A DNA stretch of 64,000 nt from Alphaproteobacteria bacterium (lineage in GTDB: Bacteria; Pseudomonadota; Alphaproteobacteria; UBA6615), in the NCBI GenBank assembly GCA_965248805.1, contig CBDFKJ010000006.1, forward strand, positions 205,473 to 269,472, written 5' to 3'. The notes beneath the pieces are model-generated. The model had not been told where the DNA came from and did no database searches. It was given only the letters and a program-made list of their open reading frames with translations. Each line of letters begins with the position of its first letter. Position 1 is the stretch's first letter. The translations under genes were made by a program, and so were the position numbers. Positions 2,072 through 50,496 of this stretch are shown piece after piece.

Positions 2072-4357
2072 ATGGTGAGACCGGCCGTTTGCAAGCTGGT
2101 TGCGCTCGCGTGTCTTGGTTTGGGATTCGTCACGGCCGCTTCCAGTAGTGCACAGCCTGCGGGCGACGTCATCTCGGAGATCCGGGTGGCCGGCACGCGG
2201 CGCATCGAACCGGCGACCGTCATATCGCACATGGCGCTGACGCCTGGGCGAGCGTTCGACGCGGAACTGATGAATGAGTCGCTAAAGAGTCTCTTTGGCA
2301 CCGGCTTGTTCGCAGACGTGACGCTGCGCCGTGAGGGCGACGCGCTGATCGTGCAGGTGGTCGAGAATCCGATCATCAATCGCGTCGCTTTCGAGGGCAA
2401 TCGCCGCATCGACGATGAGATCCTCCAGTCCGAAGTGACGCTGCGCTCGCGCCGGGTCTACACCAGGACCCGGGTACAGAGTGACGTCCAACGTGTCCTC
2501 GACGTCTATCGACGCAGCGGCCGGTTCGCGGCGACGGTGGAACCCAAGGTTATCCAGTTGCCGCAGAACCGCGTCGATGTGGTGTTCGAAATCGACGAGG
2601 GACCGATGACGGGCGTGCGATCCATCGCCTTCATCGGCAATGAGGCGTTTAGCGACGGCACCTTGCGGGGTGCTATCCAGACGACCGAAAGCAAGTGGTG
2701 GCGCTTCCTGTCGCGCGGAGACACCTACGATCCCGACCGGCTAACCAACGACCGTGAGCTCTTGCGGCGGTTCTATCTCGCCGAGGGCTATGCCGACTTT
2801 CGCGTCATATCGGCGGTGGCCGAGCTCACGCCCGACCGCGGGGACTTCGTCATTACCTTCGCCGTCGAGGAAGGCGAGCGCTACCACTTCGGCACGATCG
2901 AGGTGAACAGTGAACTACGTGACCTCGAGCCCGAGCAGCTCGCTTCCCTGGTCACCACCCGGGAAGGCGATTGGTACAGTGTCCAGAAGCTCGAGCAATC
3001 TCGGGACTTGATCACGGACGCCGCCGGGCGATTGGGTTATGCCTTCGTCGACGTACGTGCGCGCGTGAACCGCGACCGCGACGCGCTGACCATCAACATT
3101 ACCTACGAAGTGCGCGAAGGCCCGCGGGTCTATGTTGAACGGATCGAGATCACCGGCAACGAACGGACCCATGACAAGGTCATCCGTCGCGAATTCTTGG
3201 TCGTGGAGGGCGACGCCTTCGACCCCGACGCACTGCGCCAATCGCAGACCGGCGTGCGCAACCTCGATTTCTTTGAACGGGTGGAGGTCGACAACGTTCC
3301 CGGCTCGGCGCCCGATCGGACGGTGGTGCGGGTCGATGTCAAGGAGAAGTCCACCGGCGAATTGAGCTTCGGCGCTGGCTACTCGACCACCGCCGGCTTC
3401 CTGGGTGATATCGAGGTGCGCGAGCGCAATCTCCTGGGGCGCGGCCAGGACGTGCGCGTCGGTTTCACGCTGGCCCAGGAGCAGCAGCAGGTCGACTTCA
3501 GCTTCACCGAGCCGTACTTCCTCGACCGTGAGCTATCGGCCGGGTTCGACCTCTTTCGGCGGGTGACCGACCGCGAGGACGAGAGTTCGTTCAAGGAGGA
3601 CAACTTCGGCGGTGCGCTACGCTTGGGCTATCAGATGACACCGGCATTGCGCCACAATGTTCGTTACAACCTGATCAACCAGGACATCACCGACGTCGAC
3701 GCGGATGCGTCGCGGGTCATCCAGTCACAGGCTGGCGAAACCATCATCTCGTCGATTACGAACGACTTTTTCCTGAACCGTCTCGACAGCCGCATCGACC
3801 CCAGCGAGGGTTATTTCGCGCGGTACAGCGTCGACGTCGCCGGCCTTGCCGGTGACGTCCATCATCTGCGCAACAGCATCAGCGCCGGGTACTTCCTGCC
3901 GTTTTTCGAGCGGCAATTCGTGCTTGGCCTCAACGGCGAGGTAGGGTACATCGTCGGTCTCGGCGAGGACGTACGGTTGGCCGATCGGTTCTTTGTCGGC
4001 GGCATGCGGCTTCGGGGCTTTGAAAACGCGGGCGTCGGGCCGCGCGATCTGGTGACCAACGACGCACTGGGCGGCAATCTGCTAGGACTGGTCACCGCCG
4101 AGATCAGCTTTCCGCTGGGGCTGCCCCGTGAGCTCGGTGTCACCGGCAAAGCCTTTGTTGATGCCGGCACGCTCACGGATATCGAGGAGTCGGGGCCGGG
4201 TCTTATCGATACGAGATCGATTCGCGCCGCTGCCGGCGTCGGTATCGCATGGCGGTCGCCGCTGGGGCCAATGAGATTGGACATTGCCGAGGCATTCGCC
4301 AAGGAAGACCATGATCAGACCGAATTGTTCCGCTTCAGCTTTGGCACACGGTTCTAA
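2072..4357 (+). CDS. bamA: outer membrane protein assembly factor BamA (Omp85)
   Basis: 761 aa with signal peptide, POTRA-like repeats and a C-terminal beta-barrel ending in an aromatic residue. Located between rseP and skp. Confidence 0.93.
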   Translation: MVRPAVCKLVALACLGLGFVTAASSSAQPAGDVISEIRVAGTRRIEPATVISHMALTPGRAFDAELMNESLKSLFGTGLFADVTLRREGDALIVQVVENPIINRVAFEGNRRIDDEILQSEVTLRSRRVYTRTRVQSDVQRVLDVYRRSGRFAATVEPKVIQLPQNRVDVVFEIDEGPMTGVRSIAFIGNEAFSDGTLRGAIQTTESKWWRFLSRGDTYDPDRLTNDRELLRRFYLAEGYADFRVISAVAELTPDRGDFVITFAVEEGERYHFGTIEVNSELRDLEPEQLASLVTTREGDWYSVQKLEQSRDLITDAAGRLGYAFVDVRARVNRDRDALTINITYEVREGPRVYVERIEITGNERTHDKVIRREFLVVEGDAFDPDALRQSQTGVRNLDFFERVEVDNVPGSAPDRTVVRVDVKEKSTGELSFGAGYSTTAGFLGDIEVRERNLLGRGQDVRVGFTLAQEQQQVDFSFTEPYFLDRELSAGFDLFRRVTDREDESSFKEDNFGGALRLGYQMTPALRHNVRYNLINQDITDVDADASRVIQSQAGETIISSITNDFFLNRLDSRIDPSEGYFARYSVDVAGLAGDVHHLRNSISAGYFLPFFERQFVLGLNGEVGYIVGLGEDVRLADRFFVGGMRLRGFENAGVGPRDLVTNDALGGNLLGLVTAEISFPLGLPRELGVTGKAFVDAGTLTDIEESGPGLIDTRSIRAAAGVGIAWRSPLGPMRLDIAEAFAKEDHDQTELFRFSFGTRF

Positions 4358-39440: not shown

Positions 39441-40330
39441 TTGGGGTTCCGTATTTTGCTGTGGTATGCGCCCGGCAAGGCGCCGGTCCCGCTCGATCGT
39501 GTCGCCGAGATCGTGCGCCTGACGCAGCAACCGCCGCCGTTTGAGGCGACCCACTGGACGTTGCGCGCGATGGCCAGGGCGGCCGGTATTGCCGCCTCGA
39601 CGGTGCAGGCGATCTGGAAGGCTCACGGTCTCAGCCCGCACCGCTGGCGCAACTTCAAGCTGTCGACCGACCCTGCCTTCGCCGAGAAACTCACCGATAT
39701 CGTCGGCCTGTATGTCGACCCGCCGGCCCATGCGGTGGTGTTGTCGATCGATGAGAAGTCACAGATCCAGGCGCTCGACCGCCGGTCTGCCGATGAAGAA
39801 GGGACGCGCCGGCACCATGACCCATGACTACAAACGGCACGGCACGACCACGCTGTTTGCGGCGCTCAACGTTCTGGACGGAACGGTGATCGGCCAGAAC
39901 ATGCAGCGCCACCGCCATCAGGAGTTCATCCGCTTCCTCAACCGCATCGAGCGCACGGTGCCGGCGGACAAGGCCATCCACGCGATCGTCGACAACTACG
40001 CGGCGCACAACAAGGACAAGGTCCGCGCCTGGCTCGCCCGCCATCCGCGCTGGACTTTCCACTTCACACCGACCTCCTGCTCGTGGCTCAATGCCGTCGA
40101 GGGCTTCTTCGCAAAACTCACCCGGCGGCGGCTCAAGCACGGCGTCTTCCATTCCGTCGTCGATCTCCAGGCCGCAATCAACCGCTTCGTCCGCGAATAC
40201 AATGCGGCCAACCCACAGCCGTTCATATCGAAAGCCGACCCCGACGACATCATCGCAGCCCGAAACCGAGGGTTCCAAACGTTGAAATCAATCCACTAGC
40301 CACCAACGGGTCGAAACCGTGCGGGGAGGG
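39440..40330 (+). mobile_element. IS630-family element remnant, 5'-truncated and internally deleted, with its transposase split over two frames
   Basis: RILLWYAPGK...[15 protein letters not shown]...[14 protein letters not shown] lies in frame A (to 39827). [27 protein letters not shown]...DNYAAHN...[13 protein letters not shown] (DDE) lies in frame B (39783..40299). The frame change is at about 39778-39790. Confidence 0.75.
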
Positions 40331-40450: not shown

Positions 40451-41879
40451 TTATCAGCCCGTTGAAAAAGTCGCGGCCATCTGACTCTGTGACGAGGGCA
40501 TGGTTCGAGTCGGGAGCTTCGTCATGGCGTTGGGACGACAAGGGGATCGACAGGTGGACTTGATGGTCAGTTGGGCAGAGATGCCTCGCTCGCCCGGCCA
40601 CGTGTTTTACGACCAGCTGGCTGGTCGATGCCGGTTTCGATGCGTTCGCCGAGGACCTGTGTGAGCCCTATTACGCGCCAGGGATCGGACGTCCGGGAAT
40701 CCCACCGGGGCGTTACTTCCGGATGCACCTGGTCGGCTACTTCGAAGGCCTCGACAGTGAGCGGGCGTTGGAGTGGCGGTGCGCCGACAGCTTGTCGCTG
40801 CGTGAGTTCTTGCGCCTGGAGGCGCGCGCACGTGTGCCTGACCACTCGTCGTTGAGCACGATCCGCAGCCGCACGCGGTGCATGAGGCAGTGTTAGCCTG
40901 GGTGCTGGACGTTCTTGGCGAGCACGGCCTGGTCAAGGGCGAGCGGATTGGGGTCGATGCTTCGACCATGGAGGCGAACGCGGCGCTGCGCTCGATCGTG
41001 CGCCGCGACAGCGGCGAAAGCTATCGCCAGATGCTGCAGCGCATGGCCGCCGACAGCGGGATCGAGACCGCGGCGAATGACTTGGCGCAGATGGATCGGC
41101 GGCGCAAGGGCAAGAAACTCTCCAATGCGGACTGGGTCTCGACGCGGAGGCCAAAATCGCCAGGATGAAGGACGGCACGACGCATCTGGCCTACAAGCCC
41201 GAACACGCGGTCGACCTCGACACCGGGGCGGTGATCGCGGCCGAGCTGTATCCGGCCGATCAGGGCGACACGACCACCCTGCCGACAACGTTGACGTCAG
41301 CCGAGGCCAAGCTGGCGGCTGTGGGCGCAGCGCCGACGGCCGACGAACCGGCGGAGCTGGTGACCGACAAAGGCTACTTCGGCCGCGAGGTGCTGAAGTC
41401 CCTTGCCGACGGCGCCTGGACGACCCGCATCGCCGAACCGAAGGGCAAGGGGCTCTCGCGCTGGCACGGCGACGACGCCGCTCGGCGGGCCGTTTACAAC
41501 AACCGCAACCGATTGCTGTCGGGCGTGGCGAAGGCCGCGTTCAAACTCCGCGCCGAAGTGGTCGAGCGGGGCTTCGCCCAGGTCCTCGATCGCGGCGGCA
41601 TGCGCCGCACTTGGCTGCGTGGGCGCGAGAACGTCGGCAAGCGCTATCTGATCCACGTCGCCGGACACAACCTGGGCGTCCTATTGCGCCAGTTGATCGG
41701 CGCCGGGACCCCGCGAGAGGCTGCGGCCAAGGGCTTGGCGGTCCTGCTGCTTGTCTTGCGACAGGAACAATCGCTGATCATTATCCTCGCCCTCAATAAC
41801 CCCCCGGCGCCGGGTCTCGCCGCCGCCATTGTTATCACGCCCGATGCTTCATCAACTCAGTCTTCTTCAACGGGCTGCT
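40451..41879 (+). mobile_element. IS5/IS1182-like insertion sequence, copy 2, heavily degraded
   Basis: Termini are TTATCAGCCCGTTGAAAAAG (40451-40470) and CTTCAACGGGCTGCTA (41864-41879). The transposase is about 65-70% identical to copy 1 and is broken by at least three frameshifts. Confidence 0.7.
40540..41790 (+). pseudogene. IS5/IS1182-family transposase fragmented by at least three frameshifts
   Basis: Homologous segments sit in different frames: VSWAEMPRSPGH; LVDAGFDAFAE...GRYFRMH; ORF 40878..41168 (GLVKGERIGVDASTMEANAALR); ORF 41165.. (MKDGTTHLAYKPEHAVDLDTG...RYLIHVAGHNLG). Confidence 0.7.
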
Positions 41880-41928
41880 ATGCTGTAGTCGATCGCGGGG
41901 CCGTTGCCGCGTCAATCGGCCGTGAGAC

Positions 41929-42417
41929 CTATGTGAGTTGCTGGCGCACTAGGTCGAAGCCGGCACGCACCGTCGCCTCGCGGATCGCGGCGCGGGTGCC
42001 GGGAAAGATTTCCACACGGTGCAATGTCGGCCGGTCGGTGCGCGCAGAGGCCAGATAGACCAAACCTACCGGCTTCGTCGGGGTCGCGCCGTCAGGCCCG
42101 GCGATGCCGGTGACTGCTACGCTGATGTCGACCCGCGCCCGCGCCAACGCGCCCTCGGCCATGGCGCAGGCGACGGCTTCGCTGACCGCGCCATGCTCGG
42201 CGATGAGTTCCATCGGAACCCCGAGAAGGTCGATCTTGGCCGCGTTGGCGTAGGTCACGAAGCCGCGCTCGACCACATCGGAGCTGCCGGGGATCTCCGT
42301 CAGGCAGGCGATGATGAGCCCGCCGGTGCATGACTCCGCCGTAGCGAGCTGCAATTGCGCCGCCCTCATGTCTTCGAGTAGACCCTCGGCCTTTTTCAAT
42401 AACGCATTGCCGAACAT
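41929..42417 (-). CDS. pncC: CinA C-terminal-domain protein (nicotinamide-nucleotide amidohydrolase PncC-like)
   Basis: 162 aa from MFGNALLKK with the TAESCTGGLI motif. The upstream 148-codon Arg/Gly-rich extension in the ORF track is rejected. Confidence 0.8.
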   Translation of the reverse strand: MFGNALLKKAEGLLEDMRAAQLQLATAESCTGGLIIACLTEIPGSSDVVERGFVTYANAAKIDLLGVPMELIAEHGAVSEAVACAMAEGALARARVDISVAVTGIAGPDGATPTKPVGLVYLASARTDRPTLHRVEIFPGTRAAIREATVRAGFDLVRQQLT

Positions 42418-42899: not shown

Positions 42900-44084
42900 C
42901 TAGAGGGGGGGAAGGCGCACGGTCGCGACCGCCTGGCCCGCGATGCCTTCACCGCGTCCGGCAAAGCCCAGGCCATCTGTGGTTGTCGCCTTCACGCTGA
43001 TGCGCGTCGCCGGCACCGTCAGCAATTCCGCCAAGCGGGCAACCATCGCCGCACGATGCGGCGCGATGGCCGGACGCTGGCAGATTAGCGTGACATCGAG
43101 ATGGAGCAGCGCACCACCACGCTGTGCGAGCCGCTCGGATGCGAATCTGAGAAAGGCGTACGAGGGCGCGTCTTTCCACTGCGGGTCGCCCGATGGGAAG
43201 TGCGCGCCGATATCGCCGTCGCTCAGCGCTCCAAGGATGGCGTCGGTCGCCGCGTGCAGGCCGACATCGGCGTCCGAGTGCCCGATCAGTCCGTGGTCGT
43301 GGGCGATGGCGCCGCCACACAGCATCACGTGATCGCCCGGCCCGAACCGATGCACGTCGAAGCCGGATCCGACGCGGATGTCGCCGGGGTCGCTCAACAG
43401 GCGTTCCGCCCGCGCCAGGTCATCGGCCGTCGTAATTTTCAAATTGTCGGCTTCGCCCGACACCAGCGCGATGTCGATCCCAGCCGCCTCCGCGACAGCT
43501 GCGTCGTCGGTAAAGTCATCACCTGCCGCGGCGCGGTGCGCGTCCAGCAACTGCGCAAAATGAAAACCCTGTGGCGTTTGCGCCCGCCACAGCCCCGAAC
43601 GCGGTACGGTTGCGGCGATGCGCCCGTCAGCTTCGCGCTTCAACGTATCGGTAACGGGCAGCGCGGCGATGGCGCCGGACGCATCGTCCAGTGCCGCGAG
43701 CACGCGGCCGATCAGCGTCGCCGACGCCATCGGGCGCACCGCATCGTGGATCAACACCCGGTCGGGTCCGCGTCCCTCCCAGGCCTCGAGGCCGGCGCAC
43801 ACGGAGGCCTGGCGGCTTGCGCCCCCCATGACCGGCCTCGGCAACGCAAACGCCGCCGTTGCGCGCACATACATCTCCGCGTCATCGCGATGGATCACCA
43901 CTTGCACGTGGTCGACTGCGGCATGGTCTGCGAACCGGGCCACGGTGTGGGCGATAACGGGCCGGCCGGCGAGTGCGCGGTACTGTTTGGGCACGTCGCC
44001 GCCCAAGCGTTGGCCGCGCCCGCCGGCTACGATTAGCGCTAGGGTTTCGATCTGCGGACTCCTGAGACCAGTGCCCCGGGCCAC
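42900..44084 (-). CDS. ispDF: bifunctional 2-C-methyl-D-erythritol 4-phosphate cytidylyltransferase / 2,4-cyclodiphosphate synthase
   Basis: N-terminal IspD (IVAGGRGQRLG) and C-terminal IspF (GFDVHRF, GHSDADVGLHA) as one fusion, typical of alphaproteobacteria. Confidence 0.92.
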   Translation of the reverse strand: MARGTGLRSPQIETLALIVAGGRGQRLGGDVPKQYRALAGRPVIAHTVARFADHAAVDHVQVVIHRDDAEMYVRATAAFALPRPVMGGASRQASVCAGLEAWEGRGPDRVLIHDAVRPMASATLIGRVLAALDDASGAIAALPVTDTLKREADGRIAATVPRSGLWRAQTPQGFHFAQLLDAHRAAAGDDFTDDAAVAEAAGIDIALVSGEADNLKITTADDLARAERLLSDPGDIRVGSGFDVHRFGPGDHVMLCGGAIAHDHGLIGHSDADVGLHAATDAILGALSDGDIGAHFPSGDPQWKDAPSYAFLRFASERLAQRGGALLHLDVTLICQRPAIAPHRAAMVARLAELLTVPATRISVKATTTDGLGFAGRGEGIAGQAVATVRLPPL

Positions 44085-44287
44085 CGGTCGATGACCACGG
44101 GCGGGCGACAGAGTGGCCTTAACAAACTCACAACTTTACTGAAAGGCAAGATAATCGCCCGGGCTGTACCGCGATTGTTAACGAAATCTATACCGAGACT
44201 CTGCGACTATGGACACGTGGCATCGCGCCATGTTTGCGCCCGTTATGGGCGCCAGGCGCGGCATGTTTTAAGCAGGAGGGCAGGCCT

Positions 44288-44548
44288 GTGGATTGGTTTT
44301 GGCAACGCAAACCGGACTGCACATTTGACGCCGGCACGGTGTATCGATGCACCGATTCTAAGCTGGTGATCGAGACCGCAACCGTGCTGGAGCAGTTCAA
44401 CGACTACAACGGGATTCCCCACGTCCGGTATGCCCTGCGCCTAGACTCGCCATATGGCGAACCGGGCACCGAGGATTTGCGGGTGTTGTCGCAATCTGCC
44501 TTCGCGCGCCGCTACTCGGAGTACTGCGGACGGCACAAAGCCGCATAG
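44288..44548 (+). CDS. hypothetical small protein (86 aa; several Cys; GC3 clearly lower than neighbours)
   Basis: GTG 44288 is preceded by AGGAGGG at 44272-44278. Protein-like composition but no recognisable family. Sits where dusB/nifR3 normally lies. Confidence 0.4.
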   Translation: MDWFWQRKPDCTFDAGTVYRCTDSKLVIETATVLEQFNDYNGIPHVRYALRLDSPYGEPGTEDLRVLSQSAFARRYSEYCGRHKAA

Positions 44549-44677
44549 CGCGGCCGGCCTCGCGCCGGCCTTCCGATTGTCCGCGAACAACCCGTTGAGG
44601 CTTCCGATCTAGCTCTTTCCGCCGCCTGACGGCACGCGAATGGTGCTATGATCGCACCATGACGGCCGGCATCAGCA

Positions 44678-46725
44678 TTGAACATTACCGCCCTACTGGC
44701 GCTGCTCCCAGCCGCCGTGGTCGCCTATCGGCACCGGGGAGGGCGAAGCGGTGTCTACTGGCTGACGACCGGTGTGGCATTGGCCGGGCCCGTGCTGTGG
44801 CTGGTCGCGCGGTTGCATGCGACTTGGAACGCGGGGTTCGACGCCTCGATCTGGCTGATCATCGGCACCACGATGGCACTCTACGCGGTGTTGGCCATCG
44901 CCACGCGTCACACCTGGCGGTTGGCGCCGCTCCTGATGCCTTATGTGTTGGCGCTTGGACTGATCGCTACCGTATCGAGTTCGGCCGACAGCCGCCCCCT
45001 GGTGGGCATCGCGCCGAGCGGCTGGCTGCAGGCTCACATCTTGACCGCTTTGCTGGCCTACGGCGTCATCACGTTGGCCGCGATCGCGGCCCTGGCGGTG
45101 ACGGTGCAGGAGCGGGCGCTCAAGGCCAAGCGCGCAAGCCGGTTGGCGGAACTGCTGCCGTCGGTTGCCGATGGCGAGGCCCTGCAACTGGGCCTTCTCG
45201 CGGCCGGCCAGTTCGCTCTCGGCGTCAGCCTGCTCAGCGGCATGGCCATGCAGCGGTTCAGTACGCGTGATCTGCTGATAGTTGACCACAAGACCATCTT
45301 CGTCTTGCTCAGCTTCATCGCGATTGGGCTGCTGCTGTGGACCCATCACCGCAGCGGCGTCCGTGGCCGGCGGGCGGCGCGGGTGGTGCTGGTGGCCTAC
45401 CTCCTCCTCACTCTCGGCTATCCCGGCGTGAAGTTCGTCGCCGATGTGATCCTGGCCCAGGACACGAGCCGAAAAACACGACCGGATCATGGGTTCGGGG
45501 GCGGCTGCGTCGCCGATCTGGAGTTGCGCGGGCAACGCGCACGGCGTAGTCTGCCTAATTCGTGGTCAGTCGAGATACTTGCCCGGAAAATGAGCAGATT
45601 GGCGCGGCAAGCAACTGAATCCAATACAGTCCGGGTCGACTCCATGCCGGCAGCATCGGAACCGTCGGTCCTGGGCTCGTTGCCGCTGTCGGTCCTGACC
45701 TTGGGCCCGACCCTCGGCATCGTTGCCGTCAACCCGGCCGCCGAGCAGTTCTTTGCCACCGGCGCCAGCGCGGTGACGGGTCTGCCTTTGCGTGCCCTGG
45801 TGGCGCCGGACAGCCCGGTCATCGCGCTCGTCGAGCAGGTTCGCGCACATGGCGCCTCGGTATCGCAGTCAAACGTCCTGATTGCGGGCGCGCGAATTGG
45901 CCGCCGTCTGGCGACGGTAACGGCGGCGCCGTTGGGGGACGACGGCGCCGGATACGTCCTGACGCTGCATGAACAGACGATGGCGCGCCGCATCGAGCAG
46001 CAACTCACGCACCTCAATGCCGCGCGCTCGGTGTCCGCCATGGCCGCCGTCCTGGCGCATGAAGTCAAGAACCCCTTGTCCGGCATTCGCGGCGCGGCAC
46101 AGCTGTTGGAGCGCAATGCCGCCGAGAACGATCGCGATCTAGCGCGCCTTATTTGCGACGAGACCGACCGCATCGTAGCGCTGGTCGATCGCATGGGAGC
46201 GTTCGCCGAGGCCGACGCCTTGGATCGTGAGGCCGTCAATGTTCACAAGGTCCTCGAACACGTGCGCCGACTGGCGGAGTCGGGATTTGCCAGCCACGTT
46301 CACTTCGTCGAGGCCTACGACCCCTCGTTGCCGCCGGCGTTCGCCAACCGCGATATGTTGGTGCAGGCCACACTCAACTTGATCAAGAACGCCGCCGAGG
46401 CAGTGTCCCAATCGGGCGGTGAAATTAGGCTTGAAACGGCCTATCGCCATGGCATGCGCATGTCGGTCGCCGGTGGCGCCGGATCGGTGGATTTACCACT
46501 GGAGATTTCGGTCCAGGACAACGGCGTCGGCATTACCGATGCCGTGCGCATGCACATGTTCGATCCGTTCGTCACCAGCAAGCCGAGCGGCTCGGGCCTC
46601 GGACTGGCGTTGGTCGCTAAGATCGTCAATGATCATGGTGGCGTCATCGACGTCGAAAGTCGGCCGCGCCGAACCGTTTTCCGCATCATGCTGCCGCTCC
46701 ACCTCAATGATCGCCAGGAACAGTC

Positions 46726-46729
<4 letters not shown>
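44678..46729 (+). CDS. ntrB: single 683-codon open reading frame: YpjD-like 8-TM cytochrome-c-assembly-family membrane protein (aa 1-262) running without a stop into the nitrogen-regulation sensor kinase NtrB (from Met323, ATG 45644)
   Basis: N-terminal part aligns end-to-end with E. coli YpjD ([21 protein letters not shown]..., [29 protein letters not shown]...). C-terminal part has PAS, HisKA ([19 protein letters not shown]) and HATPase domains. The 60-codon linker is rich in A/T-ending codons. TTG start. Confidence 0.7.
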
Positions 46730-48156
<1,427 letters not shown>

Positions 48157-48189: not shown

Positions 48190-50496
48190 ATGACCCGCGG
48201 TACACCAGACTCTCTAATGGTGGGCCCACCGGCGCGCAAGCGAGCCGGGGCGAGGCTTGCCGGCCTCGACCGCGCACAGCTGACGCGCTGGGTGCGGCGC
48301 TGGCGATTGCCGCGCCGGCTGGCGGTCGTGCTGACCGTGGCCGCCATCGCGGCGGGCATAACGACGTTCCTCACGCTGTCGGGCTCCAGTGGTTTCACGA
48401 ATGATCCGAATGCCGTACTGGCGCTGCTGGTTCTCGATCTCGCCTTGCTGCTCGTCCTCGGCGGGATCGTCGTCTGGCGCGTGGCAAAGCTTTGGGCGGA
48501 GCGGCGAGCCGGCGCGGCGGGGTCGCGTCTACATGTGCGGCTGGCGTCGATGTTCGCCGTCTTGGCGGTGGCGCCGGCTATTGTGCTGGTGATCCTCGGC
48601 GCCGCCTTCTTCGCCTTGGAGGTGCAGACATGGTTCAGCGAGCGTGTGCGTACGGCGGTCAATGAATCGGTCGCGGTGGCGGAAGCGTATTTGCGCGAAC
48701 ACAAACAGGTCATCGCCAGTGATGCGTTCGCCATGGCTAACGACTTGTACCGTCAGTGGCCTACGCTCTACGCCGACCCGCGGCGTCTGGATCGCGCGGT
48801 GGAAGCGCAATCCCGCTTGCGCGCCCTCAATGAAGCCGTCGTTTTCGAAGAGAATGGACATCCGCTGGCGTCGGCCGGACTTAGCCTGTCACTGCGCTTC
48901 GAGACGCCGCCCGAATGGGCTCTGCGCGAAGCCGCCGGCGGTGAGCTGGTGGTTCTCGCCGGCGGCGGCGATGACCGCGTACGGGCGCTTGTGGGTCTGC
49001 AAACCGTGCCGCAAGCGTTTCTGTTCGTCGGCCGGTTCGTCGATCCGGCCGTACTGCGGCACATCGATTTGGCACGCTCTGCCGCCACTCTCTACGAACA
49101 GTTGGAGTCGCGCCGCTACGGGCTGCAGGCGACGTTCGCGCTGATTTTCCTTCTGGTCGCCTTACTGCTGGTGCTGGCCGCGGTCGGGGTCGGGCTCAAC
49201 TACGCAACGCGATTGTCGCGGCCGATATCGAGCCTGGTCACGGCGGCGGAACGCGTACGCGCCGGCGATTTCAGCGCCCGCGTCGAAGAGGCGCCCGAGG
49301 AGGACGAACTGGGCATGCTGACCCGGGCCTTCAATCGAATGACCGGGCAATTGACGCAGAACCAACGTGAACTGATACAAGCGAACCGGCAACTCGACGA
49401 CCGCCGCCGGTTTACCGAAGCGGTGCTGGCCGGTGTGTCGGCGGGGGTTATCGGACTCGATGGCGAAACACGCATCAACCTGCCGAACCGATCGGCGTCA
49501 ATCCTGCTGTCGACCGGCCTGGAACGCCTGATCGGCGTGCGGCTTGGCGATGCGGTGCCGGAAATGGCCCGCCTTATCGACGCGGCCGTGAGCCGACCGT
49601 CGCAGATCAACGAGGCGCAGCTAGCGATCGAGCGCGACGGACGCTCGCGCACGCTGCTGGCGCGCGTTACGGCCGAGCACGCGCCGGACGGCGGCATCAA
49701 GGGTTTCGTGGTTACGTTTGATGACGTAACCGATCTGCTCGCGGCTCAGCGCAAAGCCGCATGGGCCGACGTGGCCCGCCGCATCGCGCATGAGATCAAG
49801 AACCCTCTGACGCCGATTCAGCTGTCCGCCGAGCGCCTGAAGCGAAAGTATCTGTCGGAGGTCAAGTCCGACCCGCAGACTTTTCAGCAGTGCACCGACA
49901 CCATCGTGCGCCACGTCGGCGGCATCGGGCGCATGGTGGATGAGTTCTCGAACTTTGCTCGAATGCCGGCACCCGTCATGCGGGCCGCCAACGTGGCGCA
50001 GATCTGCCGCGATGCGCTCGCTCTGCAATGTGCGGCGAGAACGGACATCGACTTTCGGCTGGACCTGCCCGACGCGGCGACCGTATTTCGATGCGACGCC
50101 GAGCAGGTCACGCAGGCGCTAACAAACTTGCTGAAGAACGCAACGGAAGCAATTGATGGCCGCGACACGAGCGCTGATCAGACGCCAAATGATGCGGGTT
50201 TTGTCGTCGTTCGCGTTGCGCAACACGGTCAAGATGTGCGTATCATAGTCGAAGACAATGGAAAGGGCCTGCCGGTCAACGCGCAATCGCGCCTGACGGA
50301 ACCCTATGTCACGACGCGGTCAAAAGGCACGGGGCTCGGCTTGGCGATCGTCAAAAAGATCATGGAAGATCACGGCGGCGATTTGCTTCTAGAGGCCCGC
50401 AAGGGAGGCGGCGCGCGCGCGCAGCTCGTGTTCGAGCAGGTGGACGACATGGGCGGTGCAGCGGTGCTGGATCACAGCGACACTCATGGCGCATGA
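48190..50496 (+). CDS. ntrY: sensor histidine kinase NtrY
   Basis: 768 aa with N-terminal TM segments, HAMP and PAS domains, HisKA (IAHEIKNPLTPIQLS) and HATPase. Sits upstream of ntrX. Confidence 0.9.
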   Translation: MTRGTPDSLMVGPPARKRAGARLAGLDRAQLTRWVRRWRLPRRLAVVLTVAAIAAGITTFLTLSGSSGFTNDPNAVLALLVLDLALLLVLGGIVVWRVAKLWAERRAGAAGSRLHVRLASMFAVLAVAPAIVLVILGAAFFALEVQTWFSERVRTAVNESVAVAEAYLREHKQVIASDAFAMANDLYRQWPTLYADPRRLDRAVEAQSRLRALNEAVVFEENGHPLASAGLSLSLRFETPPEWALREAAGGELVVLAGGGDDRVRALVGLQTVPQAFLFVGRFVDPAVLRHIDLARSAATLYEQLESRRYGLQATFALIFLLVALLLVLAAVGVGLNYATRLSRPISSLVTAAERVRAGDFSARVEEAPEEDELGMLTRAFNRMTGQLTQNQRELIQANRQLDDRRRFTEAVLAGVSAGVIGLDGETRINLPNRSASILLSTGLERLIGVRLGDAVPEMARLIDAAVSRPSQINEAQLAIERDGRSRTLLARVTAEHAPDGGIKGFVVTFDDVTDLLAAQRKAAWADVARRIAHEIKNPLTPIQLSAERLKRKYLSEVKSDPQTFQQCTDTIVRHVGGIGRMVDEFSNFARMPAPVMRAANVAQICRDALALQCAARTDIDFRLDLPDAATVFRCDAEQVTQALTNLLKNATEAIDGRDTSADQTPNDAGFVVVRVAQHGQDVRIIVEDNGKGLPVNAQSRLTEPYVTTRSKGTGLGLAIVKKIMEDHGGDLLLEARKGGGARAQLVFEQVDDMGGAAVLDHSDTHGA

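Follow-up and report, generated by a model that had tools for sequence, protein, structure and literature searches.

The window analysed here is a stretch of 64,000 nucleotides from an alphaproteobacterium of the lineage UBA6615, and it contains a nitrogen regulation cluster in the order ntrB, ntrC, ntrY and ntrX. Upstream of ntrB lies a YpjD/CcsA-like gene, and the two are spanned on the forward strand by a single frame of 683 codons (44678 to 46729), which starts with TTG and has no in-frame stop. The features of the locus are:

42900 to 44084, reverse strand: ispDF, the divergent upstream neighbour, which anchors the synteny with L009 and Stella.
44644 to 44652, forward strand: extended -10-like promoter box TGcTATGAT, 6 nt before ATG 44659, a leaderless-type layout.
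44659 to 44661, forward strand: orthologous (native) ypjD start ATG, aligned with the ATG of L009, L007 and L020.
44659 to 45270, forward strand: out-of-frame ORF read from the native ATG, 203 aa, a nonsense product (ORF listing).
44662 to 44677, forward strand: 1-nt insertion (frameshift) relative to all homologues, exact base ambiguous (MAFFT gap).
44678 to 45457, forward strand: body of the YpjD/CcsA-like gene (residues 1-260, eight TM helices), whose first possible in-frame start is TTG.
45458 to 45460, forward strand: CAG at the stop-codon position of the family, a lost stop (DNA alignment).
45461 to 45589, forward strand: former ypjD-ntrB intergenic spacer, now open, 43 codons (129 nt; composition and alignment).
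45552 to 45568, forward strand: conserved non-coding motif TGCCTAATTCGTGGTCA upstream of ntrB, kept in relatives.
45590 to 46729, forward strand: ntrB (glnL), a predicted soluble PAS-HisKA-HATPase_c kinase of 379 aa with its own start codon (alignment with relatives).
46726 to 48156, forward strand: ntrC, sigma-54 activator response regulator, whose start overlaps the ntrB stop (ATGA).
48190 to 50496, forward strand: ntrY, membrane-anchored NtrB-like kinase of 768 aa (ORF listing).

The initial annotation had described a YpjD-like part and NtrB in one stop-free frame, and the ORF listing confirmed this (683 aa). In the conceptual product, Pfam places Cytochrom_C_asm at residues 66-255, PAS at 334-438, HisKA at 453-513 and HATPase_c at 558-675, while the NCBIfam NtrB model NF008293 aligns to residues 328-674. 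An exact look-up found no record of the 683-aa product or of the NtrC of the window. Frameshifts had been suspected from long ORF overlaps elsewhere in the window, and these proved to be merely over-extended starts of complete genes.

The upstream part belongs to YpjD/COG4137 of the CcsA-CcmC-CcmF family, scoring 52.4 bits against PF01578 (residues 66-255), above the gathering cutoff of 29.9. It has 917 homologues; all of the 120 matches listed are stand-alone proteins of approximately 260-290 aa, and the best identity is 57%. With the family it shares a length of about 260 residues, eight TM helices, W116/H120, H204-K205, the C-terminal motif and the same end position as E. coli YpjD. The AF2 model of the domain shows the eight helices with a mean pLDDT of 81.7, and its top match in the PDB by Foldseek is CcsBA (7s9z, probability 1.00, E 1.9e-3). 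A profile search of PDB sequences with YpjD gave no match, so that the similarity holds at the level of the fold alone and topology cannot be transferred residue by residue from CcsBA; a literature search on YpjD returned nothing on its topology or function. BLASTP against E. coli K-12 YpjD aligned residues 85-258 with YpjD 91-262 of 263 (E 1e-9), at merely 24% identity. The match along the whole length of residues 1-262 that was first proposed was thus generous, although the shared C-terminal end point stands; the YpjD part ends at residue 260, and codon 261 occupies the stop position of the family.

The gene body is open for 260 codons with a coding-like GC3 of 0.85, and it retains all 25 invariant residues. 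It nevertheless differs from YpjD/COG4137 genes in three respects: the native start is out of frame, CAG replaces the stop, and changes at conserved positions are in excess. Among 74 columns conserved in at least 90% of homologues, the window ypjD departs from the consensus at eight (W100S, P104D and G184S included), a number reached by only 3 of 74 homologues, whose mean is 3.0; this excess carries an ascertainment bias, because the homologues were chosen as matches to the window sequence. We recognised an intact gene by an in-frame orthologous start and a stop after ...DV(I/L)(L/M)x, and the window ypjD has neither.

The downstream part shares with NtrB (GlnL, NRII), the soluble histidine kinase of the NtrBC two-component system, the PAS-HisKA-HATPase_c architecture, the invariant kinase motifs, and the overlap with ntrC, beyond which lie ntrY and ntrX. 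Its PAS_4, HisKA and HATPase_c domains score above their Pfam cutoffs, and the invariant columns of the H-, N- and G-boxes are all kept (alignment A1). NF008293 is the best-scoring family and is covered from model position 10 to 347 of 349, with a score (196.8 bits) below the cutoff of 240, as expected for an alphaproteobacterial NtrB, since this equivalog model was built on enterobacterial NtrB. The sole hydrophobic stretch of the NtrB part (residues 331-349, KD19 1.71) falls within the PAS fold. The closest relatives, P0001 and P0002, are stand-alone proteins of 381 aa with 77-79% identity, and their ATG/GTG start aligns with ATG 45590 (Met305). This is therefore the probable start of ntrB, rather than Met323 (ATG 45644), where the initial annotation had placed it and which we now regard as a less likely alternative; its other suggestion, that NtrB is translated independently, gains support from the conservation of this start. 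A clear Shine-Dalgarno was sought before both starts (45590 and 45644) and none was found; Shine-Dalgarno strength is weak at all candidate starts and does not discriminate between them.

Regarding gene order, ntrB followed by an ntrC with Response_reg, Sigma54_activat and HTH_8 is also found in L001-L006 and L009, and the NtrY orthologues of L001 and L006 carry NtrY_N, HAMP, PAS, HisKA and HATPase_c. The window departs from the usual ntrB locus in having a YpjD-like gene upstream instead of dusB/nifR3, with no intervening stop; in S. meliloti, dusB-ntrB-ntrC has been described as one operon (PMC10746234). No remnant of dusB was detectable in the window.

The codon at which the two genes run together can be located exactly. 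In the DNA alignment, the column of CAG 45458-45460 is TAG in L006 and L009; the corresponding codon is TAG in the remnant of L088 and TAA in L007, and YpjD ends in ...DVLLS before its stop in L009 and in ...DVLLA in L007. Termination falls at this column in 22 of 25 aligned homologues, E. coli YpjD ends at most 1-2 residues from it, and in a few homologues (P0167, P0174 and L020) a displaced stop yields a short C-terminal extension. L088, an independent assembly, carries the same ypjD remnant as L006, TAG included. A recently lost stop, one of the options raised at first, is thus supported, as relatives have TAG or TAA at the very codon that reads CAG here. The junctions in relatives, proposed at that stage as an informative comparison, point the same way: in L009 and L007 the two are separate genes, with ypjD ending in TAG or TAA.

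Between the former stop and ntrB, the connector had been described as 60 codons that look like former intergenic DNA. Its length proved to be 44 codons, because the NtrB start shared with relatives is Met305, while its intergenic origin was upheld by composition and homology. G+C content is flat over the three codon positions (GC1/2/3 of 0.68/0.57/0.61, against a GC3 of 0.85 in the ypjD part and 0.78 in ntrB). Its alignment to the L006, L001 and L009 spacers contains indels (4 and 29 nt) whose lengths are not multiples of three, and the AF2 pLDDT of the connector is approximately 50. A run of 43 intergenic-like codons free of stops is not unusual (P = 0.22 to 0.29 in simulations), and the connector is stop-free in another frame too.

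The match of the connector to the intergenic spacer of relatives includes the motif TGCCTAATTCGTRGTCA, and TGCCTAATTCGTAGTCA is present in L001, L006 and L088. TGG 45563-45565 within the window motif corresponds to a TAG in relatives, which is in frame there: L006 read in the ypjD frame gives ...LPNS-stop-S..., and BLASTN finds 89% identity to L006 over 28 nt here. We infer that the motif at 45552-45568 is a promoter-proximal or 5'UTR element. A sigma-54 promoter at this motif was considered and dropped, because the GG-N10-GC spacing is lost in the window. L006 has a good -10-like element before ntrB (TATAGT), which reads CGTAGT in the window, so that ntrB may depend here on transcription from the ypjD promoter. 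The consensus scan of the connector gave no terminator and no consensus promoter, its RNA folding is not unusual (z -1.17), and Rfam has no match between positions 40000 and 50000 of the window; on these grounds we rejected the idea that the spacer holds an attenuator, a riboswitch or a terminator. Pattern scans of metagenome DNA with the ypjD 3' end and with the spacer motif gave 0 matches each, and hence no closer relatives were found.

A second lesion lies at the 5' end of ypjD. The native start, ATG 44659, sits 19 nt from TTG 44678 and is thus one frame off the long ORF. From this ATG to a conserved proline codon (44708) there are 16 codons plus 1 nt, and in 12 of 14 homologues this proline falls at residue 17. 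The offset implies an insertion of 1 nt within the first six codons of ypjD, and in the MAFFT DNA alignment L009, L007 and L020 show a gap of 1 nt against the window. Removing any single base in 44662-44677 yields an N-terminus MTA(A/G)(S/T)... in register with the homologues. The inserted base lies outside any homopolymer. The 203-aa product read from ATG 44659 as it stands is unlike YpjD N-termini (as-is scores of -10 to +2). That the native start is out of frame had been missed in the initial annotation. A TATAGT/TATAAG/TATAGA-type box precedes the ypjD ATG or GTG in approximately 19 alphaproteobacterial loci, mostly at a spacing of 5-7 nt and up to 9. This recurrence suggests that the box at 44644-44652 is a promoter and that the ypjD mRNA is leaderless. 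The consensus promoter scan did not call this box, since it has no good -35 element.

Comparison with relatives suggests a loss of ypjD in this clade. L009 is fully syntenic (ispDF, a small ORF, ypjD, ntrB and ntrC), with ypjD and ntrB as separate genes 61 nt apart; ispDF is the upstream neighbour in L020 as well. The adjacency of ypjD to the ntr cluster is conserved in about 20 of 80 loci, and in L006 the frames of ypjD and ntrB already coincide. At this locus ypjD is lost from the sister lineages L001-L006; a 45-nt remnant of it still precedes ntrB in L006 and L088. The search of genome contigs used exact peptide words and probably missed the clade at 77-79% identity. Taken together, the comparisons suggest that the clade first lost dusB/nifR3 from a ypjD-dusB-ntrBC arrangement and that ypjD then decayed, through stages represented by a frameshifted and stop-less gene (the window), a 45-nt remnant (L006 and L088) and complete absence (L001).

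The predicted topology of YpjD bears on what a joined protein could do. Over 26 aligned sequences, the mean number of K+R is 3.1/1.9/5.2/4.5 in the odd loops of the domain and 0.15/0.4/1.1/1.6/0.08 in the N-terminus, the even loops and the C-tail. With eight helices, the positive-inside rule therefore predicts N-out and C-out, with the YpjD C-terminus periplasmic. By this prediction, the last TM helix would not deliver a fused kinase to the cytoplasm. No additional TM helix was found in the connector, which holds 12 K/R residues.

We favour, with a probability of about three in four (0.74), the explanation that the locus holds two genes: a decaying ypjD pseudogene, with a shifted start and a mutated stop, and an ordinary, independently translated ntrB. 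Under this explanation an insertion of 1 nt in the first six codons would have shifted the native start, ATG 44659, which is probably leaderless, out of frame, the stop TAG at 45458-45460 would have changed to CAG, and the surplus substitutions at conserved positions would be a further sign of decay. NtrB would be a cytoplasmic kinase translated from its own conserved ATG (45590-46729). The ORF finder joins the ypjD frame, entered at the incidental TTG 44678, to ntrB because the 129-nt spacer is free of stops and the two genes ancestrally share a frame. Little or no 683-aa product would be expected, and any that was made would have its kinase half attached to a C-terminus facing the periplasm and would be non-functional as NtrB. 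Given the open body, the coding-like GC3 and the invariant residues kept, any decay must be very recent, or else the gene may still be used from TTG 44678. That ypjD is a pseudogene, and that both lesions are true mutations and not base-call errors, is what the comparative evidence suggests.

The main rival, which we judge improbable, is a sequencing or assembly error: in the real genome ypjD, starting at ATG 44659 without the additional base and ending in TAG at 45458, would be intact and separate from ntrB, and at least one of the two lesions would be a consensus error. One substitution and one 1-nt indel suffice to repair ypjD, which in other respects looks intact, and fused ORFs of this kind are familiar at pseudogenes and in draft and MAG assemblies, where a one-base change of a stop merges neighbours of the same strand and frame. 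Related long-read metagenome assemblies contain clear frameshift artefacts (ABC_sub_bind is split in L001 and L002 and intact in L003-L005), and L010 has a comparable fused ORF, NtrB-NtrC of 852 aa, in the same operon. Inspection of the sequence also shows that CAG 45458 sits in CCAGG, a Dcm-type motif, and methylation motifs can give systematic nanopore miscalls. Against this, the assembly would need to contain two independent errors in a span of 800 nt, the insertion does not fall in a homopolymer, and errors would not produce the surplus of conserved-site substitutions in the ypjD body. A Pfam scan of ten other ORFs of the window met no frameshift (eight essentially full-length domain matches, one partial and transposase-like, one without a match), so that the assembly does not look error-ridden. 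The second lesion and the true loss of ypjD from sister lineages set the window apart from typical fused-ORF artefacts and suggest real decay.

A further alternative, which we think quite unlikely, is that YpjD is still made from TTG 44678 or another non-canonical start, each chain dragging an NtrB domain that is tolerated, non-functional or degraded, while working NtrB comes from ATG 45590. The frame is open from TTG 44678, all eight helices and the invariant residues are retained, no terminator separates ypjD from ntrB, and the extensions in P0167, P0174 and L020 are precedents for a displaced stop. However, this TTG has no Shine-Dalgarno and lies 19 nt downstream of the AUG with which the transcript probably begins, and the 5'-terminal AUG would take initiation in the wrong frame. 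Moreover, a 420-aa domain and a linker with 12 K/R would have to cross the membrane, or else the insertion of TM8 would fail, and either would probably inactivate YpjD.

A selected fusion, a membrane-tethered NtrB with the YpjD-like domain as anchor or sensor, was the headline of the initial annotation, and we now consider it very unlikely. In its favour are the continuous frame with both domains complete, the conserved adjacency of ypjD to the ntr genes in about 20 of 80 loci, and the two in-frame TAG codons of relatives (45458 and 45563) that are both sense codons here, a pattern open to interpretation as selection for read-through, although this second site lies in unconstrained spacer. The architecture would be unique: no protein with both halves was found among the matches listed from word-indexed searches of 5.8 billion protein clusters, nor in the top 150 of an exhaustive search of 1.84 billion representatives, where a fusion would rank first, and the 120 listed NtrB homologues are all stand-alone (375-398 aa) except one NtrB-NtrC fusion. 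The non-coding composition of the linker and its homology to intergenic DNA also argue against a selected fusion, as do the out-of-frame native start of ypjD and the start that NtrB keeps for itself, and the predicted C-out topology would leave the kinase periplasmic, separated from ATP, PII and NtrC. The normal form of a membrane-tethered NtrB-like kinase is the paralogue NtrY, whose gene the cluster already contains 1.5 kb downstream; NtrY has a dedicated membrane domain, NtrY_N, and a HAMP linker, which put the kinase in the cytoplasm. The long ORF, in contrast, lacks HAMP, has a non-coding linker and is predicted to exit to the periplasm with its last helix. Least credible of all is a newborn tethered NtrB, in which the bases are correct, translation starts at TTG 44678, TM8 or the basic linker is rearranged so that the kinase is cytoplasmic, and free NtrB is made alongside from ATG 45590, the fusion having only just arisen; if true, it would be a rare view of a sensor kinase gaining a membrane anchor.

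With the two-gene reading, the biological weight of the apparent fusion is small: NtrB is ordinary, and the long frame is a by-product of an upstream gene that is broken or miscalled. The locus carries a warning for annotation, as automatic gene calling could yield a 683-aa "CcsA-domain histidine kinase" and so spread a false domain architecture. It also offers a small evolutionary snapshot of the loss of ypjD, reconstructed by comparison.

The long ORF is best read, at a probability of about 0.74, as an ordinary, independently translated ntrB lying behind a recently decaying ypjD-like gene that carries a 5' frameshift and a TAG-to-CAG change. The stop-free frame shared by the YpjD-like part and NtrB, as described in the initial annotation, was recovered over its full length. 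Pfam assigns residues 66-255 to Cytochrom_C_asm and residues 334-675 to PAS, HisKA and HATPase_c, and residues 328-674 align end to end with the NCBIfam NtrB model. Residue 260 is the last of the YpjD-like part. The reported alignment with E. coli YpjD holds for the common end point and not for the whole length: BLASTP pairs only residues 85-258, with residues 91-262 of the 263 of the K-12 protein (24% identity). NtrB had been assigned to Met323 (ATG 45644); the window and its closest relatives share ATG 45590 (Met305) instead, and the connector is therefore 44 codons, not 60.

Features of the window
39541-40299, + strand: transposase-like ORF (DDE_3), just 5' of pgpA-ispDF
41165-42058, + strand: transposase-like ORF (DDE_Tnp_1), just 5' of pgpA-ispDF
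44644-44652, + strand: -10-like box TGcTATGAT, then 6 nt and ATG 44659, the layout of approximately 19 ypjD loci
44659-45270, + strand: nonsense frame from the native ATG, 203 codons, as assembled
44678-46729, + strand: long ORF, TTG 44678 to TGA 46729, 683 codons, no internal stop
48190-50496: ntrY, the proper membrane paralogue, in the same cluster

Among the 120 matches listed, whole-ORF homologues are stand-alone NtrB proteins of approximately 375-398 aa, with the exception of one NtrB-NtrC fusion; the closest NtrB listed are P0001 and P0002 (79% and 77% identity). Homologues of the N-terminal half, again among 120 matches listed, are YpjD-like proteins of approximately 260-290 aa, with a few longer calls. 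When 1.84 billion representatives were searched exhaustively with HMMER, no protein among the matches listed, which cover either residues 316-681 or 2-259, matched both halves; a true fusion would have come first in this ranking. Regarding gene order in 80 species-representative genomes, dusB(nifR3)-ntrB-ntrC is usual, consistent with the published dusB-ntrBC operon (PMC10746234), and ypjD-dusB-ntrB occurs in approximately 19, for instance Stella sp. ATCC 35155. When the window is added to these genomes, ypjD immediately adjoins ntrB only there and in two relatives' loci, L009 and L007. L009 is syntenic with the window (ispDF, a small conserved ORF, ypjD, ntrB, ntrC), with 61 nt between ypjD and ntrB; L007 has its ypjD stop (TAA) 114 nt before ntrB. 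ypjD has been lost from the loci that encode the closest NtrB relatives. Immediately upstream of ntrB, dusB/nifR3 is present in approximately 70 of the 80 species-representative loci (L007-L086); it was not found in the 64-kb window, nor in L001-L007 and L009.

The loci L006 and L088, which were assembled independently, retain a 45-nt ypjD remnant 5' of ntrB, GGCTACCCCGGCGTCAAGTTCGTCGCCAATGTCCTGCTCGCC-TAG. In the DNA alignment the TAG of the L006 remnant and that of L009 ypjD fall on CAG 45458-45460 of the window, the column at which 22 of 25 aligned family members terminate. Relative to the ancestral two-gene state, the window thus carries a T-to-C change in the ypjD stop codon. The suggestion that a stop had been lost or miscalled is thus borne out by TAG in L006, L009 and L088 and TAA in L007, versus CAG in the window.

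The connector is compositionally non-coding (GC1/2/3 of 0.68/0.57/0.61); GC3 is higher in ntrB (0.78) and in the YpjD-like part (0.85). An alignment to the L006, L001 and L009 spacers, with indels of 4 and 29 nt, bears out the proposal that the connector is the former ypjD-ntrB intergenic spacer. A conserved non-coding motif, TGCCTAATTCGTRGTCA, lies within it at 45552-45568. L006 already has its ypjD remnant in frame with ntrB; read-through there meets TAG twice, as the ypjD stop and again within the motif (LPNS*S), where the window carries CAG and TGG, respectively. At connector composition, 22-29% of simulations give a 43-codon stop-free run, and a second reading frame is also open; therefore the open frame requires no selective explanation. 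Scanning, folding and Rfam found no terminator, consensus promoter, unusual RNA structure or Rfam family in the connector. The motif is also present at 5963-5979 in L001 and L006 and at 2963-2979 in L088, approximately 20-25 nt 5' of the ntrB start in all four. A promoter-like pair, TTGCAT-N17-TAAATT or TATAGT, precedes it in L001, L006 and L088; the window counterpart of that -10 is CGTAGT, and the -35 is displaced by the 29-nt insertion.

The single-frame account of ypjD overlooked a 5' lesion. In approximately 19 alphaproteobacterial loci, among L007-L084, a -10-like box (TATAGT, TATAAG, TATAGA and similar) lies mostly 5-7 nt, and up to 9 nt, 5' of the ypjD start, which is ATG (GTG in L015), a layout suggesting that ypjD-like genes may be expressed from leaderless mRNA. 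The native ATG 44659 is 19 nt 5' of TTG 44678 and thereby shifted by one frame. In the MAFFT alignment, L009, L007 and L020 (Stella) show a 1-nt gap near the ypjD start relative to the window. Any single-base deletion in 44662-44677 yields a protein starting MTA(A/G)(S/T) and puts a conserved Pro at residue 17, its position in 12 of 14 homologues. The ypjD body departs from the family consensus at 8 of 74 columns of at least 90% conservation (W100S, P104D, D24S and G184S included), against a mean of 3.0 in homologues, only 3/74 of which reach 8, a comparison that carries ascertainment bias. Given the high GC3 and intact 260-codon frame, any decay is recent.

That the lesions are consensus errors in these two genes is unlikely. 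Frameshift artefacts are obvious in related long-read assemblies, and in another MAG the single-frame 852-aa ntrB plus ntrC ORF P0009 (L010, CAWFOW010000013.1, 5846-8404) shows that fused ORFs of the ntr operon also arise outside the window, via error or mutation. However, the window does not look error-ridden: among ten other ORFs scanned with Pfam, several picked for suspicious long overlaps, MoeA, MoaC, E2 and E3 dehydrogenase subunits, TatD, MetRS and PgpA gave full-length domain matches. An ABC substrate-binding gene 5' of ntrB is in two pieces in L001 (4805-5837) and L002 (4839-5837) and intact (332 aa) in three other assemblies with the same NtrB, for instance L003 (4838-5836); the splits are probably frameshift errors of long-read metagenome assemblies.

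The two transposase-like ORFs indicate a rearrangement-prone neighbourhood, and L006 likewise has IS transposases 5' of the ntr cluster. Between ispDF and ypjD, a small ORF (44234-44548, + strand, 104 aa as listed, residues 21-100 conserved) has 46% identity to its syntenic L009 counterpart (3602-3841; E 1e-21) and no Pfam family; it is missing in Stella, where ispDF and ypjD abut.

It is improbable that YpjD is still produced from TTG 44678 with a useless fused tail, despite the open frame. No Shine-Dalgarno sequence was found at this TTG, which would fall inside the predicted leaderless transcript; both points cast doubt on whether the long ORF is translated.

AlphaFold2 (75-sequence alignment) models the YpjD-like domain as eight TM helices (mean pLDDT 81.7) and the connector at low confidence; the best PDB fold match of the domain is CcsBA. 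Over 26 aligned sequences, mean K+R is 3.1, 1.9, 5.2 and 4.5 in loops 1, 3, 5 and 7, and 0.15 at the N-terminus, 0.4, 1.1 and 1.6 in loops 2, 4 and 6, and 0.08 in the C-tail, so that the positive-inside rule predicts both termini to be periplasmic. The connector carries 12 K/R residues, and no further TM segment was found in it. A C-terminal NtrB would be exported out of reach of ATP, PII and NtrC, or would block TM8 insertion. A selected membrane-anchored NtrB, as first envisaged, is very improbable given this predicted C-terminus, the non-coding connector and the lack of a both-halves match among those listed; the cluster's proper membrane-bound paralogue of NtrB is NtrY. Whether ypjD is decaying, the lesions are consensus errors or YpjD is made from the TTG, NtrB would be a normal soluble kinase, and the 683-codon fusion is best recorded as an ORF artefact and an annotation caveat.
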